A DNA stretch of 63,100 bases, the filler included, from Malassezia furfur (lineage: Eukaryota): the NCBI GenBank assembly GCA_052055015.1. It is 9 parts of 9 records of this genome, joined end to end, with 100 filler letters (N's around TTAATTAATTAA, not from the genome) between each part and the next. Parts side by side here need not be neighbours in the genome. Positions count along the whole stretch, not along the records: positions 28,340 to 35,249 come from JBQJIT010000518.1; 8 more parts are not named here. One strand, written 5' to 3'. The notes beneath the pieces were generated by a model. It ran no database searches. It was not told where the DNA came from and saw only the letters and a program-made list of their open reading frames with translations. A program made the translations under genes and the position numbers. The first letter of the stretch is position 1. The number at the start of each line of letters is the position of its first letter. Positions 1,163-34,538 of the stretch are shown here, in pieces.

Positions 1163-2856
1163 ATGTCGTGGATGCGCACCCGTGCGGGGGACGCGCGCGA
1201 GCGCCCGCTGCGTGCGTCGCTCGAGGCGGCCCTCGATGCCCTTCCGCCTGCGAGCCCCAAGACGCTCGATGGTGCGACGCTCGTGCGCATGCGCACGTGT
1301 GCCGCGCTCGGCGGCGCCCTCGCACGCGTCCGCTCCGCGCCGGCGCACACCGACGCGGACGCCGAGCGCGTGATCATCGCGGCGCTGCTGTATGTCACCG
1401 ACACGCTCGTGCACGACGCTTCCGCGCTGCACGATGCGCGCTGGTACTGGCAGCAGGTGCACGACTCCCCCTGGCGTGCGGCGCTCGTCTGGACGCAAAG
1501 TACGTGGGCCCCGGCATGCTGACCTTTGCAGCGCTTCCGCAGCGCGCCGCATACAGCGTCGCCCACCGCGGCCTGCGCCCGCTGTGCGCGACGGTGCACC
1601 ACACGCGCCGCGACGCACACGCGCGCATGCACCGCCTCGCAGATACCTACGAGTCGCTCGCCGAAAAGCTCGGCACGCTCGCACTCGACTGGCACCGCGG
1701 CACGATGCCGCGTGCGGTGCTCGCGCAGCACGCCGCGGCTGCGCTCGATCCCGCGCACCACGGCGCGGACGACAAGCCGGACGATGCGCTGGACGCCGCA
1801 CACGCGCTCCTCGAGGCCATTGCGCACCACGAGGCGCACGTCGCCGAGGTGCTCTCGCCGCGCGAGTGCGGCATCCCGTCGGTGCTGATGCGTGTGTGGC
1901 CCGTGGCTGTGGCGTACCCTGTGCTCGCGTACATCGTCACGCGCGCCGTGTCGACGCACTGGCGCACGCTCGTGGCACAGGCGCGCGACGCCGGCGCGAC
2001 GCTGCGTGGCCTCGTGATCGACTGGGTGTGGGAGCCGTCGATGCGCCTGCTCGACACGCTGCGCGCCGGGCGTGCTGAGCGCCGCCTGATCGTGAGCCGC
2101 GACTCGCTCGTCGCGGACGAGCAGAGCCTCGCACGCATGGTCCGTGCGTTTGGTGAGGACCAGCTGCACCTGCGCGGCGCAGAGCTCGACGCGTCGCTGG
2201 CGCGCGCGCAGAACGGCGACCTGACGGACGTGATGGAGCACTATGAGCGCGACATCCGCGCGCCGCTGCGCTCGCTCCTCGTCGGCGGCAGCCTGATCCG
2301 CACCGTGCTGATCCAGGTGCAAAAGGCCAAGGTCGACCTCGAGGTGGCGCTGAACGGCATCGACTGGCTGCTGCACTCGCAGGAGCTGCTCATCGGGTTT
2401 GCGGGCCTCGCGCCGGCGCTTGTGCTCGTGTACGCACTGTGGCGCGTGGCCGCGCGCGCCACGCACGCGCTCGTCTACGGGCGCGCCGCGGGGCAGGCGC
2501 AGCGCTCCACGCAAGAGGCGCGCCTCGAGGCATGGGAGGCGCTGCGCCAGATCGACGCGCTCGTCAGCGAGGCGCCGCGCAGCGAGGCGCGCGCGCCCGC
2601 ATACGGCCACCTGCTGCTCAACATCGACGTGCTGCGCGCCGCGTTTGCGCAGCTGCTCCCCGCCACGACGCGCAAGCGCGCCGTTGGCACGTGCCTCAAC
2701 GACGAGATCGAGCGCGACCTGTGCGCCCTCGAGCTCGCGGGGCAGTCGGCCGTGTTTGCCGGGAACGACACCGCATGGCAGCGCCGCCAGGCGACGATCG
2801 AGCGCATGTGGCGCAGCTGGTCGTGGCTACTTGCTATGAACCGCCTCGTGCCGTAG
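1163..2856 (+). CDS. NCA2: Nuclear control of ATPase protein 2 (Nca2), 1 intron 1500-1531
   Basis: LIRTVLIQVQKAKVDLEVALNGIDWLLHSQELLIGFAGLAP motif; intron joins ORF 914..1522 frame to ORF 922..2856 frame. Confidence 0.85.
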
Positions 2857-2870
2857 CCGAGCGCCCTCGC

Positions 2871-4451
2871 TCACACCATCACCACGCCGTTGCCCGAGCC
2901 AAACAGCGTGGGGTTCGGCACGCTTGCGCCGCCCGCGGCCGCGGGGTCCAGCTCGCGCTCGCCCGCGCGCTGCCCAAGCCCGCCCGCAAGCGGCGGCACA
3001 CGCCAGTTGAACAGGTAGAAGCGCAGAAATCCGTCCCCGGGGCCAAACTTGAGGTCGGGCGCAAACATGGGGTTGTCGAGCACCGTCAGGCAGTTGACCA
3101 CGTCGAAGCGCTGCTGCTTCGCCAGGACGAGCATGTCGGTCATGAGCGCTTGCAGCCGCGTCTTGAGCGCCTCGCGCTGCTCCACGGGCTCCTCGTACCA
3201 CGGGCGCACGTCGGCCTCGTCGGCAAGCTCGGCGTTCGTCAGCTTGCTCAGCCCGGCGCACTCCCACGCCGCCGCGCCGCCGCTCCGCGCCGCGTCGTAC
3301 GCCGACGGGCCCTCGGCCACGTCCGGGCGCGGGAGCACCGGTGCGCTCCACGCCGCTTCGGTCGCGTAATAGAAGAGGTAGGCGGCCTCGAGCGTGTCAT
3401 GCTGGTCGTGCTCAAGGATGGAGGAGGGCAGCGAGTAGAACGAAAAGAAGTCGGTGATGTGCCCGTCGTCGCGCGCCACGACCCACGTCCACGTCACCTG
3501 GCCCTTGCGCGCGACGCCGTCCGCGGCACCGCCGCGCCCGCTGAGCAGGAGGTGCGCGACCTCGGCGTCCGTGTAGCGCGGCGCCATATCAAAGCGGCGC
3601 AGGAAGCGGCGCAGCAGACGTGCGACCTGCGGCACGTCCTCTGGCACCATCTCGCGCAGGCCAGGCAGCGCCGTCTTCTTCGGCAGGTGGAAGCGCGCGA
3701 TGTGCGCATCGCGCGACATGCCCTGCGGCACGGCGCTGAAGCCAATGTCGAGCAGCTTGGACGCATTCAGTGTGCGGTGGTAGTAGCGCGAGCACGACAC
3801 GGGCGTTGGCAGCACGGAGCCGACGGTATAGATCGCCTGGAAGATGCCCGAGCGGTTGCACCGCCGCGTCACCTCCTTGATGAGCACGGGAGCGAACCGC
3901 TTGCTGCGCAGTTTCTTGTGCACGCACAAGAAGTTGATTTCGACCGACTGCCGCGCCATGTCGCGCACGCGCAGCTCCTGCGGGATGCCCGCGATGAATG
4001 CCACGAGCTTGTTGGTCGACACGACCCGCACGCCGACGTGCCACGACTTGTCGTAGCCTGGGTGCCGCAGCACCCAGTGCAGGAATGCAGGCGAGTACTT
4101 GAACCGCATCGTCGAGTCGTCGTCCTCGACGTAGTTCGCCGTGAGCAGCTCGTACACCTCGTGCAGCTGCGCCTCGTCATCCATGTCGACCGTGACCCAC
4201 GTAAAGTCGGGCGGCAGTGGGTACGGCGTCGCGCGCACCTGCTCGGGCGCGAGGTCGGGGTGGATGGGCCCGGCGTCCAGCGCAGGGCTGTCGCCCGGCT
4301 GGGCGACTGGCTGCGTCTTCCAGAACTTGTGCTCGCTCGGCGGAGGCTTTGGCGCAGCTGCACCGCTGCCGCTGCCGCCGTCAAGCATCGCCATGAGCCG
4401 CGCGAGGTTGTGCAGCGAGGCGGCGTCCTTGCGTTCTTCTTCTGGGGGCAT
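2871..4451 (-). CDS. NMT1: Glycylpeptide N-myristoyltransferase
   Basis: HKFWKTQPV, NYVEDDD, EINFLCVHKKLRSKR, KFGPGDG motifs; C-terminal GVVMV. Confidence 0.97.
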   Translation of the reverse strand: MPPEEERKDAASLHNLARLMAMLDGGSGSGAAAPKPPPSEHKFWKTQPVAQPGDSPALDAGPIHPDLAPEQVRATPYPLPPDFTWVTVDMDDEAQLHEVYELLTANYVEDDDSTMRFKYSPAFLHWVLRHPGYDKSWHVGVRVVSTNKLVAFIAGIPQELRVRDMARQSVEINFLCVHKKLRSKRFAPVLIKEVTRRCNRSGIFQAIYTVGSVLPTPVSCSRYYHRTLNASKLLDIGFSAVPQGMSRDAHIARFHLPKKTALPGLREMVPEDVPQVARLLRRFLRRFDMAPRYTDAEVAHLLLSGRGGAADGVARKGQVTWTWVVARDDGHITDFFSFYSLPSSILEHDQHDTLEAAYLFYYATEAAWSAPVLPRPDVAEGPSAYDAARSGGAAAWECAGLSKLTNAELADEADVRPWYEEPVEQREALKTRLQALMTDMLVLAKQQRFDVVNCLTVLDNPMFAPDLKFGPGDGFLRFYLFNWRVPPLAGGLGQRAGERELDPAAAGGASVPNPTLFGSGNGVVMV

Positions 4452-7058: not shown

Positions 7059-7158
7059 NNNNNNNNNNNNNNNNNNNNNNNNNNNNNNNNNNNNNNNNNN
7101 NNTTAATTAATTAANNNNNNNNNNNNNNNNNNNNNNNNNNNNNNNNNNNNNNNNNNNN
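7059..7158. other. Artificial contig spacer (N44-TTAATTAATTAA-N44)
   Basis: 100-nt N run with a central all-frame stop linker, repeated identically 8 times. Confidence 0.99.
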
Positions 7159-14180: not shown

Positions 14181-14280
14181 NNNNNNNNNNNNNNNNNNNN
14201 NNNNNNNNNNNNNNNNNNNNNNNNTTAATTAATTAANNNNNNNNNNNNNNNNNNNNNNNNNNNNNNNNNNNNNNNNNNNN
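14181..14280. other. Artificial contig spacer
   Basis: N run with TTAATTAATTAA. Confidence 0.99.
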
Positions 14281-21221: not shown

Positions 21222-21321
21222 NNNNNNNNNNNNNNNNNNNNNNNNNNNNNNNNNNNNNNNNNNNNTTAATTAATTAANNNNNNNNNNNNNNNNNNNNNNN
21301 NNNNNNNNNNNNNNNNNNNNN
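21222..21321. other. Artificial contig spacer
   Basis: N run with TTAATTAATTAA. Confidence 0.99.
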
Positions 21322-28368: not shown

Positions 28369-29599
28369 ATGGACGATTCACGGCCTGTTGTCGTGGACAA
28401 CGGTACTGGCGTACGTACCAGCTCTAATCGCAGTTTGTCAAGGTCGGATATGCGGGCTCCAATTTCCCGGAGCACGTCTTCCCTTCGATTGTCGGCCGGC
28501 CCATCCTCCGCACCGAGGAGCGGGAGTCCATCTCCGCGAATGGCGTGGAGATCAAGGACCTGATGGTCGGCGACGAGGCCGAGGCTGTGCGCAGCTATCT
28601 CCAGGTGACGCAGCCGATGGAGCACGGTGTCGTGAAGGATTTCGAAGACATGCGTCACGGTATGTCGCTTGTTCTCACGCAGTGTGGAACTATACGTTTG
28701 ACGAAAAGCTGCGGATCAACCCGCAGGGTCGCAAGGTGCTCCTTACTGAGCCACCGATGAACCCCAAGAAGAACCGCGAAGAGATGTGCCGCATCATGTT
28801 CGAAGAGTACGGCTTCGATGGTGTCTATGTCGCGATTCAGGCGGTGCTAACGCTCTATGCGCAAGGTCTCCAGACCGGTGTGGTCGTCGATAGCGGCGAC
28901 GGTGTGACGCACATTGTGCCCGTGTACGAGGGCTTTGCCATGCCGCATCTGACGCGCCGCCTCGACATCGCAGGCCGCGACGTGACGCGCTACTTGATCA
29001 AGCTGCTTTTGCTGCGTGGCTATGCGTTCAACCGCACCGCCGACTTTGAGACAGTGCGCCAGATCAAGGAGAAATTGTGCTACGTCTCGTACGACCTCAA
29101 CCTTGACAAGAAGCTGGCGGACGAGACGACAGTCCTGGTCGAGTCGTACACGCTGCCCGACGGTCGTGTGATCAAAGTCGGGCCGGAGCGCTTCGAAGCA
29201 CCCGAGTGCCTCTTCCAGCCGCATTTGGCCGGACTCGAGCAGGCTGGTATGGCCGAGATGCTGTTCCAGACGATCCAGAGTGCGGCAGTCGATGTGCGCT
29301 CGGAGCTGTATAAGCACATTGTGCTCAGTGGTGGCAGCAGCATGTACCCCGGTCTTCCCAGCCGTCTCGAGAAGGAGATGAAGCAGTTGTACCTCTCGCG
29401 TGTGCTGCAGGGTGATGGAAGCCGACTCAATAACTTCAAGATCCGTATCGAGGACCCGCCGAGGAGGAAGCACATGGTATTCTTGGGCGGTGCGGTCCTG
29501 GCCGACATCATGAAGAACCGCGACAGCTTCTGGATCAGCCGCCAAGAGTGGTATGAAAAGGGGCCTGCGGCACTCGATCGTCTGGGTCGCAATGCATAG
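28369..29599 (+). CDS. ARP2: Actin-related protein 2; introns 28411-28433, 28660-28682
   Basis: [61 protein letters not shown]. Confidence 0.97.
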
Positions 29600-29798: not shown

Positions 29799-30800
29799 TT
29801 AGTGGCGGAGGCGCTTGCCGATCTCCGACTGCCAGTTGGAGGCACGCTCAAAACCGTTGCGAGCCATCTGGAAGTCCTCCATAGCCTCGAAGATCTCCTT
29901 CTTGGAGCACATCACGAAAGGACCGTACTGCACGACGGGGTGATCAAGCGGCTCTCCGGCGATCAGGATTACGCGCGCGGGCTTGTCCGTCGGGTTGCTA
30001 ATGCGGACACCATCGTTGTTGCTAAGCACGGTCTTGGCTTCCTCGGCAGTGTCCGTCTTCAGGGCAGGGTTAGACAGGATAAGAGTGTGGTACTGGTCAT
30101 GCACATCCTTGCTGTCGCCAACCTGGACCTTGCCGTCAGCGACGTAAGCAAAGGCATTCCAGGTGTGCGGAATCTCTTGGAAGATCCAACCGCCCGGCTG
30201 AAGCTTGATGTCCATGTAGTAGCACCCGCCGTTCTCCGGCAGGCGCACGGGCGACTCCACACCGTGGCTCTTGCCCGAGATCACCTTAACTTCCCAGCCT
30301 TCGCCCTCGGTCTCCTTCGGCTCCGAGGTACGCGGCGTTTGCACAGGAAGATCCTTACCCGAGAACTCCTGGTAGGAGGGGTCGATCTTCTTCGACGCGG
30401 CAGGCAGGTCGATCCACAGCTGCATACCAACAGGGGTAGGCAGCGGCTTGCCCTCCTTGTCGCGGTGGAGAGGCATTTCGGCATGCATGATACCACGGCC
30501 GACCATCATCCACTGGATGTCACCGGGGCCGATGATGCCGCGGTGGCCGGCAAAGTCTTCGTGCTCCATGTACCCGTCAAACATGTAGGTGACGGTGGTC
30601 TGGCCACGGTGGGGATGGTCGGCGAAACCGGCACCCTCACCAACCTTGAAGTGGTCAAGCATCAGGAAGGGGCTGAAGTTGCGGAGCTGAGCGTTGCCAA
30701 GGGCACGGCGCACGCGAGCACCGACGCCTTCGCCCTGCTCGACTGCGTGAATTTGTTGAACAACCTTGCGAGAGATTTGTTGCATTGCGCGAGAACTCAT
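29799..30800 (-). CDS. Pirin (bicupin), intronless; start could be 30839, 30800 or 30785
   Basis: EGVGARVRR, PFLMLDHF, GFADHPHRGQTTVTY, HEDF, GRGIMHAEMP, QLWIDLP, PVVQYGPFVM. Confidence 0.93.
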   Translation of the reverse strand: MSSRAMQQISRKVVQQIHAVEQGEGVGARVRRALGNAQLRNFSPFLMLDHFKVGEGAGFADHPHRGQTTVTYMFDGYMEHEDFAGHRGIIGPGDIQWMMVGRGIMHAEMPLHRDKEGKPLPTPVGMQLWIDLPAASKKIDPSYQEFSGKDLPVQTPRTSEPKETEGEGWEVKVISGKSHGVESPVRLPENGGCYYMDIKLQPGGWIFQEIPHTWNAFAYVADGKVQVGDSKDVHDQYHTLILSNPALKTDTAEEAKTVLSNNDGVRISNPTDKPARVILIAGEPLDHPVVQYGPFVMCSKKEIFEAMEDFQMARNGFERASNWQSEIGKRLRH

Positions 30801-30841
30801 TTGATTTGAAATGTAACGAAATGACGAGCTCGCGAACATGG

Positions 30842-30849
30842 TTTTTATA
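30842..30849 (-). promoter_or_regulatory. Candidate TATA box of the pirin gene
   Basis: TATAAAAA on the minus strand about 40-55 nt upstream of the likely starts, next to an AT-enriched intergenic region. Confidence 0.5.
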
Positions 30850-31202
30850 CCTTCAGAGGGACCGTCCCATCGGGCCGCCACGACTGCACTTGGGCCCAAA
30901 CGCTACGGGATTAATTTAGCGATAACACCGTTTTAGACTTTTTAGGCCGTGTTAGAAAAAAATCCGCACGCAACATGACGCTGTCGGACAGAAGATTTCG
31001 ATTGCGGGCGGCCCAAACGCCGTGTCACGATTACAAATAAAAATGGACCTAAAAGGTACCCTTAGGATGTTACGGCGTAGCGACTTATGATCGTCATGTA
31101 TTTACCTAATAGGCTAAAATCCGTGCCCGGCATGTTGGTGGCCTTGTAGGCCCGTGTCTCGAATCTTCGAGCTGCTCGCTTGCACGACGCACGATCGAAC
31201 CC

Positions 31203-34001
31203 ATGTGGCGAGCGCAGCCGGGCGTCTCGTGGACCGATCTCGGCCTGGTCGCGAAATCGGCAGGGCGCTTGGCGCAGCAGGTGGCCTTAGCGCGCCCACA
31301 GGCGCCTGCAGCTGCTGCGGGTGCGTGGCCGACGCAGCGCTCCGCACCGGAAGAAAAGGAGGGTGTGTGGGATGCGACCCCTCGTGCCGCTCCGTCGGCG
31401 CCATTCCCAGGCGCTGCGCAACCAAAACGCGCGCCAAGCACACCATGGCCCTCGAAGCAGGCCGCGGGTCGTGAGTCGAGCCGTGTTCCGGAGCAACCTG
31501 CACCGGTTGCATCGCCGGTGCCGCCGCAAGAAGAACGGCGTGCATCGGTCTCAACTGAGCCGTCCACCCCGGTCAGCGGCGAGGCGCCCATCAAGGCGCG
31601 TGTGGATGCGCCGACATTGGAGCTGAGGAGTGCAAGCGCGTCGCGCACGGATGCGCCGGAGCCGTCTTTGGCAAGCTCAAAGCCGTCGGCGCCGTCGGCG
31701 CCGACGCGCGCAGATGCCGCCGCCGAGGTCGCACAGGGGCTTGAGCAGACAGCTGCAACGGCCGTGCGAGGTGCTGCAGAGACCGTGAAGGAGAATGCGA
31801 CTCCGTCAGCACACACCGAGTCGACAAACGCAGCCCCTATCTCCCCGAGCGCTGCAGTGGTCGAGGACGAGTACGATGCGGCGACCGAGGAGCGTGCGAC
31901 GCCGCTGCGTGCGGCTCGTGTGCCCTCGTCGCGTCTTGGGCGCCTACTGCATTATGGAAGTCTGGGCGCTGGCCTCGCATGGGGCTCGGCGGGCGAGTAT
32001 CTGCGCCGCGCGACGGGTCCGTCGGACGCGTCTGGACGTTCGTCGCCGTTCCTGTCGGAGGCCAACGTGAACCGACTGGTGGATAAGCTGAGCACGATGC
32101 GTGGCGCGGCGCTCAAGCTCGGCCAGTTCCTGAGCATTCAGGATAGCCACATGCTCCCGCCTCAGATCGAGCAAGTGATGCTGCGTGTGCAGAACAGTGC
32201 GCACTACATGCCGGCATGGCAGCTGGAGCGTGTGATGCGCGCCGAGCTCGGAGACGACTGGCGTGCGTCGTTTGCGTCGTTTGACGAGCGGCCGTTTGCC
32301 GCGGCGTCGATCGGGCAGGTGCACAGTGCCGTGCTCGCCGACCCGTTCCCGGCGCAGCCTGATATGGCGGGCCAGCGCGTGGCGGTCAAGGTGCAGTTCC
32401 CCGGTGTGGCTGACTCGATCTCGTCCGACTTGTCGAACATCAAGTGGCTGCTGATGGCCTCGTCGTTGCTGCCGAAAGGCCTGTTTCTGGAAAACAGCGT
32501 GCGCGTGCTGCAAAAAGAGCTCGAGGAGGAGTGCGACTACACGCGCGAGGCCGAGATGGGTCGCCGCTTCCGTGCGCACATCGACGCTGGAGGCGGTGCA
32601 CCCGAAGCGCTGCGCCTCGAGGTGCCGCGTGTCGTTGATTCGCTGTGCACCCCCCGTGTGCTGACGACCGAGTTTATGCGCGGCCGGCCGCTGACCAAAG
32701 TTATGCAGCTCGACGCTGCGACGCGCGACCGCATCGGCCTGACGGTGATGGATCTGAGCCTGCGCGAGCTGTTCGAGTGGCGCCTGATGCAGACGGACCC
32801 GAACTGGACCAACTTTTTGTACAGCGAGCGCAACCAGAGCCTGCAGCTGATCGACTTTGGCGCGACGCGGCCCTACACGCCCCAATTCATGGACGCATGG
32901 ATCAGCCTGCTCCGTGCCGCCGTCGCGGGCGATCGCGAGGCGTGCGAGGCGTGGAGCGTCGCGATCGGCTACCTCAACGGCGAGGAGCCCGAGGTACGTT
33001 GCCGCCCCATCACTGACCCAGACCATGCGCAAGGCCCACGTCGACTCGATGGTCGCGCTCGGCGAGCCGTTCCGTGCGTCGGCGCCGCAGCCGTTCCCTT
33101 TCGCGAACCAGACCATCACGGACGAGGTGCGTGCGCAGATCCCCGTGATGCTGCGCGAGCGGCTGCGCCCGCCGCCGCCGGAAACCTACTCGCTGAACCG
33201 CAAGCTGAGCGGCGCATTCTTGTTGTGCGCACGCCTCGGCGCGCACGTCGACTGCCGTGCATTGTTCGAGCGGATCACAAACGCCTACGTGTACAGCGAC
33301 GGAACGCACAACCCCCCCTCGCCCGGCGCGTTTGCGCGCAGCGGCGCACGTGGCCTGCACACCAAGGCCGCTCGACAGCGTGCGTAGCGTGGGCTCACGC
33401 AGGACTCGGGCGCAACTTGACCGACGTGTGGGCGCGTTATCCCCTCGATGAGATGCTTGCGCAAAAGATCGCGGCCGAGGACCGTGCGGATCCCAACATG
33501 GCCGTGCCGCGGCCCAAGATTGAGTTTGTGGGCCGCGCGGCGTCGGAGCCGACTATCAACTACCTTTCTTCGGAACAGATCCGCCCCGAGGCCGCGGGGA
33601 CCGTGCGGGTGCGTGGCATCGACGTGCCGCTGCGGCCCAACCCCCCCGGTGCGGAAGACTGCTGCATGTCGGGTACGTGCGCTGCTGACAAATAAGGGTG
33701 TGTCAATTGCGTGTACAATCTGTACGCCGACGACGTGGAGGAGTGGAAGGAGGAGATGAGCGCAATCCGCGCGCGCCTGGCGGACGCTTCGCCGCCTATC
33801 ACTACGGAGGAGTGGAACCCCAAGAAACTTGGCCCGCTGCCCGGCGAGTCGAATGCCGAGGTGAAGGAGGAGGAGGCCGAGGAGGAGGCCGCGGTCGGCA
33901 CCGAGGACCCGACACTGCAAGCCTTTTTCCAGCTCGAGCAGCGCATCACACGCAAGCACCGCAATGCGGCCAAAGCGGCTGAACGGAGTTCCGAACTATA
34001 G
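31203..34001 (+). CDS. COQ8: Coq8/ABC1 atypical kinase, extended by splicing into an Oxidored-like (Oxld1/YPL107W-like) domain; introns 32994-33021, 33380-33402, 33673-33696. Coq8-only form ends at TAG 33387
   Basis: MRGAALKLGQ, FAAASIGQVH, AVKVQFPGV, MQTDPNWTNF, DFGA, PPPETYSLNRKLSG; distal part PNPPGAEDCCMSGCVNCVYNLY...LQAFFQLEQR. Confidence 0.85.
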
Positions 34002-34019: not shown

Positions 34020-34465
34020 TTACGACGAGTAGAGCTGCTCCTTGAGCGGCACGCCGAGCTCCTCGCGCACCGACGAGAGCGCCTCGAGATAGGCCTTGTA
34101 CTGCGTGTCCGTCTCGACCTTGTACTTCAGGCCCTCAAAGATACGCACGGCCAGCGAGAAGTCGTTCACGCGCCGGGCCGCACGCAGGGCGCTCTCGATC
34201 ACCTCCGGCGAGGGAACGAGATCCTGGCCGAACGCGTTGTTGAGGCCGCGCTGCGCCTCGAACTGGTCCTCGACGCCGTCAAAGAACTTGACGAAGCGCT
34301 CGTTGAACTCTTCAAAGGTCTCGGTCGACTCCGAGTAGGCACGCGCTGCGAGTCAGTAGATCAATACATACCCTGCATAGCAAGCGGAGCACCGCGCGAA
34401 AACAGCGCCGCGCGCGCACTGGTCGATGCAGCAGCAACACGGAAAGCACCCGTCAGCAGAGCCAT
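34020..34465 (-). CDS. COX6: Cytochrome c oxidase subunit VI (Va); intron 34346-34371
   Basis: Presequence ...QARAYS then ETFEEFNER, QRGLNNAFGQDLVPSPEVIESALRAARRVNDF, FEGLKYKVE. Confidence 0.95.
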
Positions 34466-34538
34466 GGTGGAAGGAGGAGCTCGCAAAAACCGGGCCGTAC
34501 CCTCCGCTCCATCCCGACGTCACGTGCCACGGTGGACC

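Follow-up and report, generated by a model that had tools for sequence, protein, structure and literature searches.

Composite mitochondrial precursors, in which two mitochondrial proteins are joined in one reading frame, include Arg5,6, Atp25, the S. pombe proteins Rsm22-Cox11 and Etp1, SPAC22A12.08c and rice RPS14, and the mitochondrial processing peptidase (MPP) cuts Arg5,6, Atp25 and others at junction sites (PMC8734313). Here we analysed a stretch of 63,100 nucleotides of Malassezia furfur DNA (assembly GCA_052055015.1; the whole stretch is hereafter called the window) and describe a gene on its plus strand (31203-34001, from record JBQJIT010000518.1) that likewise joins two mitochondrial proteins in one frame, Coq8 and the Oxidored-like domain protein Oxld1, and whose junction carries an arginine-containing, possibly presequence-like motif, as in the described precursors. 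The Coq8/Oxld1 pair is not on the list in PMC8734313, and for the window gene cleavage is predicted from the motif.

The intron at this junction and the Oxld1 module also have described counterparts. The curated annotation of M. sympodialis holds 5350 introns with a mean length of 30 bp, 99% of which are supported by RNA sequencing (PMC5389616, Table 2), and the 23-nt junction intron of the window fits the ultra-short Malassezia introns in length and in all signals (GTRYGT, CTNAY, YAG), with no difference found. Human OXLD1 needs the membrane potential for its import into mitochondria and is processed in vitro (PMC8664129); in H9c2 cells its over-expression or knock-down is reported to shift the activities of complexes I and V (PMC12413873). 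Like the Oxld1 module of the window, human OXLD1 belongs to the PF09791 family, but it is encoded by a standalone gene; the likeness is one of family membership rather than of direct alignment. Ct-NDUFV3 is an accessory subunit of Chaetomium thermophilum complex I and binds at the NDUFV3 site (PMC9699679).

We propose, with a probability of roughly 0.6, that the locus is a single gene, interrupted by three ultra-short spliceosomal introns (28, 23 and 24 nt), whose mRNA would encode a 907-aa composite mitochondrial precursor. Splicing of the 23-nt junction intron would be the normal route, and after import MPP would most likely cut at a conserved R-x-[LIF]-H-[TS] site, releasing Coq8 and a free Oxld1 module as with Arg5,6, Atp25 and Rsm22-Cox11. 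These components are not equally firm: judged by comparison with relatives, the gene structure and the fusion are almost certainly real, and for the internal cut by MPP we consider the odds only slightly better than even.

Joined by script at the coordinates in Table 1, the exons give a coding sequence of 2724 nt, or 907 aa, with a single, terminal stop, and retention of the 23-nt intron gives a product of 718 aa. Splicing of 33380-33402 joins C (33379) to GA (33403-04) to form CGA and leads onward in frame 0. The preliminary description of this DNA had placed the Coq8 TAG inside the 23-nt intron, with a 907-aa in-frame fusion and a 718-aa retained form, and had called a further intron of 24 nt. 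These claims are confirmed on the sequence; the 23-nt intron is borne out by the local intron signals and the 24-nt intron by Pfam continuity. At the other end of the gene, the Coq8 N-terminus aligns with the M. yamatoensis model P0005 and is conserved among relatives.

The N-terminal part of the 907-aa product is an atypical kinase of the COQ8/UbiB family with a presumed role in coenzyme Q (CoQ) biosynthesis. The ABC1 domain (PF03109) lies in exon 1, with a Pfam score of 214.6 bits (gathering cut-off 22.9; E 1.5e-63), and the closest solved structures are COQ8B (9tvk, E 4.8e-95) and COQ8A (4ped, E 9e-78); bacterial ABC1 proteins match only at about 1e-31. The motifs KxGQ, VAVK, QTDPN and DFG are present in the window translation and invariant in the family alignment (A1), and for the protein P0017 the ESM Atlas agrees with the COQ8 family.

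The C-terminal part is, on its domain content, an Oxidored-like module of the OXLD1/Ct-NDUFV3 family, about 190 aa long and lying behind a low-complexity linker. PF09791 is split exactly by the 24-nt intron, with positions 2-20 (23.5 bits) before it and 22-45 (30.2 bits) after it, at a cut-off of 24. The residues C, C, G, C and C of the Cys cluster are invariant in two alignments (A2 and A3), and PF09791 is also carried by P0002, a public protein of the window's species. A search for homologues of near-equal length to P0002 gave 4 matches only, and an exhaustive search of representatives gave 96 standalone-type Oxld1 proteins. Ahead of the domain lies a short conserved box, which we call the N-box. 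In the form [NDE][LM]..[RTV][WFY] it is found in 30 of the 34 fused proteins that we assembled, against 0.47 expected from shuffled linkers, and as G-x-N-L-x-x-R-[YFW] it recurs in 28 of the 96 standalone-type proteins.

The credibility of the 23-nt intron was judged by other candidate introns of the window. A census on both strands of the window for GTRYGT..CTNAY..YAG, flanked on either side by 60 open codons or more, gave 29 candidate introns of 19-50 nt; most measure 21-29 nt, and the modal length is 23 nt (7/29). A looser pattern matches 107 times in the window against 45 +/- 8 in Markov-1 shuffles, and the tail of the junction intron, CTCACGCAG, recurs at 28660 and 52392. The 23-nt element has the local 5' site, a branch box in the range of 4-9 nt before the 3' AG and the modal length, and seen beside the short introns of the M. 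sympodialis annotation it is an ordinary local intron. That it contains a stop is not rare either, as an internal stop is present in 8 of 27 candidate introns whose phases were assigned heuristically; the Coq8 stop lies inside this one because the intron sits at the old gene junction. The next AG (33451-52) was rejected as the 3' splice site, since the resulting 73-nt intron would break the frame.

Metagenome contigs scanned with Coq8 exon 2 provided six further loci (L001-L006) at 60-77% identity. Two of them, L005 and L006, are unfused and end directly after the Coq8 domain, and L001-L004 are Malassezia-like, with short introns and the same convergent COX5A neighbour. The preliminary description had named conservation of the intron and linker in other Malassezia as a check: the junction introns of L001-L003 interrupt the same codon in the same phase as that of the window, directly 5' of an L/R-G-x-[DN]-[LM] box, L004 is intronless at this point, and the linker motif is conserved. 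In the window and in L001, L002 and L003, removal of the intron restores the downstream frame despite the differing lengths (Table 1). Intron 1 is kept in the window and in L001-L004 (24-28 nt, longer in L002), and the Cys-cluster intron measures 24 nt in the window, 121 nt in L002 and 0 nt in L001, L003 and L004. As a side observation, the locus displays intron turnover, with a junction intron of 0, 23, 28 or 43 nt.

The L002 locus can be compared with a public open reading frame (ORF) of 605 aa, P0014, which is 94-97% identical to it in three blocks and passes both L002 introns (43 nt and 121 nt) at the exact splice points, down to the Tyr codon formed from T|AT. Stop read-through or frameshifting in place of splicing was ruled out, as P0014 contains this exact splice-formed codon. 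Because ORFs from that source are prokaryote-style calls, we infer that P0014, and likewise P0008, derive from RNA assemblies; among the other calls of this style, P0001 and P0004 read through introns, P0122 retains an in-frame intron and P0002 starts at TTG. A spliced, fused mRNA would then exist in a sister species of the window's Malassezia.

Table 1. Features of the Coq8-Oxld1 gene in the window, and the junction intron in the window and in related loci.
Feature	Position	Strand	Details
Exon 1: Coq8 N-terminal region and ABC1/UbiB atypical-kinase domain	31203..32993	+	597 codons, ATG at 31203
Intron 1	32994..33021	+	28 nt, phase 0, GTACGT..CTGAC..CAG; junction shared by models P0003 and P0005
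Exon 2: Coq8 C-terminal part and first part of linker	33022..33379	+	Frame-1 ORF 32851..33387
Candidate internal MPP cleavage motif R-G-L-H-T	33349..33363	+	Strict motif conserved in fused linkers
Intron 2, GTGCGTAGCGTGGGCTCACGCAG	33380..33402	+	23 nt, phase 1, in-frame TAG 33385-33387; GTGCGT/CTCAC/CAG; homologous introns in relatives
Exon 3: Oxld1 N-box, spacer and first half of Oxidored-like domain	33403..33672	+	PF09791 positions 2-20; covered by P0002
N-box L-G-R-N-L-x-D-x-W	33405..33431	+	Family-conserved; 5' of first in-frame ATG 33453-33455
Cys cluster CC-x-S-G-C-x-x-C, split by intron 3	33660..33710	+	Cys and Gly columns invariant (alignments A2, A3)
Intron 3	33673..33696	+	24 nt, phase 1, GTACGT..CTGAC..AAG, in-frame TAA 33693-95; Pfam continuity; bridged exactly by P0002
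Exon 4: second half of Oxidored-like domain and C-terminal helix motif	33697..34001	+	PF09791 positions 22-45; stop TAG 33999-34001
Junction intron, window			23 nt, phase 1; length 2 modulo 3
Junction intron, L001 and L003			28 nt, phase 1; near-identical loci; length 1 modulo 3
Junction intron, L002			43 nt, phase 1; length 1 modulo 3
Junction intron, L004			None; one unbroken 260-codon ORF, 2501-3283, from Met after intron 1 to Oxld1 stop
First eight intron bases, GTGCGTAG	window 33380-33387; L001 and L003 2802-2809; L002 2820-2827		Identical in three lineages

The fusion had first been taken for a local peculiarity, which was not borne out: it is an old Ustilaginomycotina architecture that is already present in public annotations. 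Model P0003 of M. brasiliensis has the same junction as the window gene; a search with the region around it gave 576 matches, and among the best 120 of these PF03109 and PF09791 occur together in 31. The named fused proteins in this set come from 23 species, all of them Ustilaginomycotina and from three classes; the lineage was verified for four of the 23. They represent Ustilago/Mycosarcoma, Sporisorium, Pseudozyma, Testicularia, Thecaphora and Violaceomyces as well as Tilletia, Tilletiaria, Exobasidium, Meira, Ceraceosorus and Malassezia. PF09791 is absent from the named matches outside Ustilaginomycotina among the best 120 of 576, where proteins from Agaricomycotina, Tremellomycetes and Ascomycota have ABC1 only. 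Judged from these proteins, the Coq8-Oxld1 fusion is the normal, ancient architecture of the gene in Ustilaginomycotina. Literature searches found no paper describing it.

Several annotated proteins are orthologues of the window gene, among them UMAG_02464 of Ustilago (Mycosarcoma) maydis (956 aa), MYAM1_000663 of M. yamatoensis and the proteins of Sporisorium reilianum and Tilletiaria anomala. They have the same Pfam pair in the same order and share both linker motifs with the window, but the linkers of the annotated Ustilaginomycotina fusions are longer (164-254 residues, compared with about 100-150 in Malassezia). Apparent exceptions point the same way. The tail after the conserved YSLNRKLSGAFLL box is 21-43 residues long in unfused Coq8 proteins, compared with 38-84 residues, mostly 57-84, in 'Coq8-only' proteins of Ustilaginomycotina type, whose tails include the first linker motif, as such or in a variant form, before a stop 4-32 residues further on. 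Tails of this length and content are as expected from a stop within the junction intron.

The case for internal cleavage is made by the linkers of the 34 fused proteins, which are 102-254 residues long. The strict motif R.[LIF]H[TS] is found in 22/34 and a looser form in 29/34; in 200 shuffles the strict form came up in 0.2 on average and never in more than 2. In 25/34 the motif lies 8-61 residues ahead of the N-box, and the preceding 20 residues include 2-5 K/R and, in most cases, 0-2 D/E; it was not found in the tails of unfused Coq8 proteins. Some standalone Oxld1 proteins, namely 8 of the 28 N-box carriers by regular expression, have a presequence-like start that ends in R-x-F-[HS]-[ST] ahead of the N-box, and the linker of the fused proteins may retain the end of an ancestral Oxld1 presequence. 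The idea of a tandem mitochondrial precursor, put forward from the R-x-L-H-T motif of the window in the preliminary description, is strengthened by the presence of this motif in fused proteins across the subphylum. Its conservation supports, without proving, internal cleavage, and so does the processing of human OXLD1 (PMC8664129).

A number of points weigh against the proposed composite precursor. The motif alone predicts the cut, and it is neither universal nor uniform: only 8 of the 28 standalone N-box proteins match it, K can take the place of R and S or Y that of H, and even the loose expression misses it in 5/34 fused proteins. Linkers of 102-254 residues would be long enough for a tethered, uncut protein. 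The RNA origin of P0014 and P0008 is itself deduced from the prokaryote-style ORF calls, and among the protein matches listed there is no junction-crossing protein of the window's species. Finally, P0002, an RNA-type ORF of that species that differs from the window in one residue, has the 24-nt intron spliced and starts at TTG 33417, just after the TAG, which would most simply be explained by a contig still holding the 23-nt intron.

The first of these points bear on an alternative in which the protein is spliced and fused but left uncut, so that Oxld1 would act tethered to Coq8 and the linker motifs would serve binding or regulation. Preservation of the fusion across three classes fits such a physical coupling, as do the long linkers and the degeneration of the cleavage motif in some lineages. 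We nevertheless hold this alternative to be possible but doubtful. The motif looks like the end of a presequence, is placed like one and stands ahead of the N-box as it does in some standalone proteins, and every composite mitochondrial precursor listed in PMC8734313 has an MPP site at its junction. Moreover, the only located homologue, Ct-NDUFV3, sits at the tip of the peripheral arm of complex I, away from the expected site of Coq8 (PMC9699679).

The start of P0002 bears on a different alternative, the gating put forward in the preliminary description, in which retention of the junction intron would act as a switch: the unspliced RNA would give Coq8 alone (718 aa) and the spliced RNA Coq8 plus Oxld1, so that less Oxld1 than Coq8 could be made. 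One hint at it is the start of the intron, GTGCGTAG, with its TAG two codons into the intron, which the window, L001/L003 and L002 share base for base although the remainder of the intron differs; an AG at +7/+8 is found in none of the other 26 candidate introns of the window. P0002 would also fit an RNA contig from which intron 3 but not intron 2 had been removed, in keeping with the missing junction-spanning ORF of this species among the matches listed. Against a switch, L004 and P0128 are without a junction intron, and because of this the Coq8:Oxld1 ratio is fixed there. M. cuniculi-like proteins have the stop 4 codons later, and conservation extends to the minor 5' variant, G at +3, which suggests plain inheritance of a splice site. 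Any retained intron at this position would truncate the protein. A premature stop far upstream of the normal one is expected to invite nonsense-mediated decay, and the stop here lies about 600 nt before the normal one. We therefore consider a regulatory use of intron retention unlikely, and a switch in the form just outlined rather improbable. At the protein level only, the M. pachydermatis protein P0042 ends in R-A-stop, which would fit GTGCGTAG.

A composite precursor also agrees with the lack of any evident start for Oxld1, which the preliminary description had noted and which is upheld here. Frame 0 of the window translation contains no Met from 33022 to 33453, and because the conserved N-box lies 5' of any in-frame ATG, an independent Oxld1 start is very unlikely. 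Two neighbouring genes or a bicistronic RNA, with Coq8 ending at TAG 33385, Oxld1 beginning at ATG 33453 and the 'intron' a chance match over-used by predictors, would account for the annotated Coq8 proteins of M. pachydermatis (622 aa) and M. cuniculi (658 aa), which end at the junction, and for P0002 being called as a separate ORF, but this is highly improbable given the unbroken ORF of L004, intron lengths that compensate to hold the frame in three other loci, the exact spliced sequence of P0014, the mere 65 nt between TAG 33385-33387 and ATG 33453, and a 170-aa product with an acidic start and no presequence that would leave the N-box untranslated.

Ultra-short introns appear to defeat gene predictors at the Coq8-Oxld1 locus. 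Among the models inspected (P0003, P0006, P0018 and P0042), the Cys cluster lacks its second half in the NCBI models of M. brasiliensis and M. psittaci, which pass from CCM[ST] to later residues, and the models of M. cuniculi and M. pachydermatis stop at the junction. In the window, a frame of 860 codons (31113-33695, frame 0) stays open across both introns and reads Coq8 exon 2 out of frame, and prokaryote-style ORF callers have turned this frame into the chimeric public proteins P0001 (830 aa) and P0004 (805 aa). Several public Malassezia annotations of this gene are thus either cut at the junction or lack part of the Oxidored-like domain.

Downstream of the gene lies the convergent COX5A (34020-34470, minus strand; Pfam E 2.2e-40) with a 26-nt intron at 34346-34371. 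Because its stop is 18 nt from the Oxld1 stop, the 3' untranslated regions of the two genes must overlap. The divergent upstream neighbour is a pirin gene (Pirin and Pirin_C; 29802-30902, minus strand), about 300 nt from the Coq8 ATG. The window also contains sixteen runs of 44 N, 704 N in all, which occur in pairs about every 7 kb (7059-7158, 14181-14280, 21222-21321 and onward); they look like masking more than biology, and none lies within the Coq8-Oxld1 gene.

The function of the Oxld1 module can be approached through its one solved relative. In a phmmer search of solved chains P0002 has one match, 7zm7_o, labelled 'Oxidoreductase-like domain-containing protein', at E 3e-9 over the Cys-cluster domain, and a profile of 120 family members (A3) matches the same chain at E 1.9e-24 in an alignment that begins with the Cys cluster and includes the C-terminal helix motif. 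This chain is Ct-NDUFV3, given in Table S5 of PMC9699679 as a protein of 380 aa that carries the same Cys motif and was covered to 47% by mass spectrometry, with 39 peptide-spectrum matches (PSMs); the main text of that paper does not use the term 'oxidoreductase-like'. From the match and the Table S5 sequence it follows that the one experimentally located PF09791 member is a complex I subunit. Ct-NDUFV3 is of the same family as the window module, including the C-terminal helix motif, but differs in being standalone and in having a long acidic and proline-rich N-terminal half, and the link of the window module to complex I is one of homology. An AlphaFold2 model of P0002 (mean predicted local distance difference test score, pLDDT, 77) had no Foldseek match in the PDB at E <= 0.001, 7zm7 chain o included, and because of this the predicted fold adds nothing. 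A complex prediction for the Coq8 domain and the Oxld1 module (P0005, residues 331-740 and 786-966) scored 0.00 without controls and speaks neither for nor against an interaction. Literature searches found no paper tying OXLD1 to NDUFV3 or to COQ8.

A link between Oxld1 and CoQ synthesis, which the preliminary description had suggested, would follow from the fusion only. As an orphan relative we also consider yeast YPL107W, a standalone gene named in the preliminary description, which we take to belong with human OXLD1 to the PF09791 family. In the widest reading, COQ8 and an NDUFV3-like complex I subunit of the OXLD1 family would be made as one precursor throughout the subphylum, the family would work at the interface of CoQ supply and NADH:ubiquinone oxidoreduction, and some Malassezia would overmake Coq8 through retention; taken as a whole, we regard this as unlikely.

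The Coq8-Oxld1 protein is thus a new candidate among composite mitochondrial precursors, and likewise among the substrates that MPP cuts internally. Because the fusion is conserved in three classes, it may serve as a 'Rosetta stone' hint that the OXLD1 family works with COQ8, or is needed in the same place and amount. Together with the family member found in complex I, this hint leads to concrete experiments for an uncharacterised human mitochondrial protein. If the widest reading were true, the orphan OXLD1 family, including human OXLD1 and presumably yeast YPL107W, would act between CoQ supply and NADH:ubiquinone oxidoreduction.

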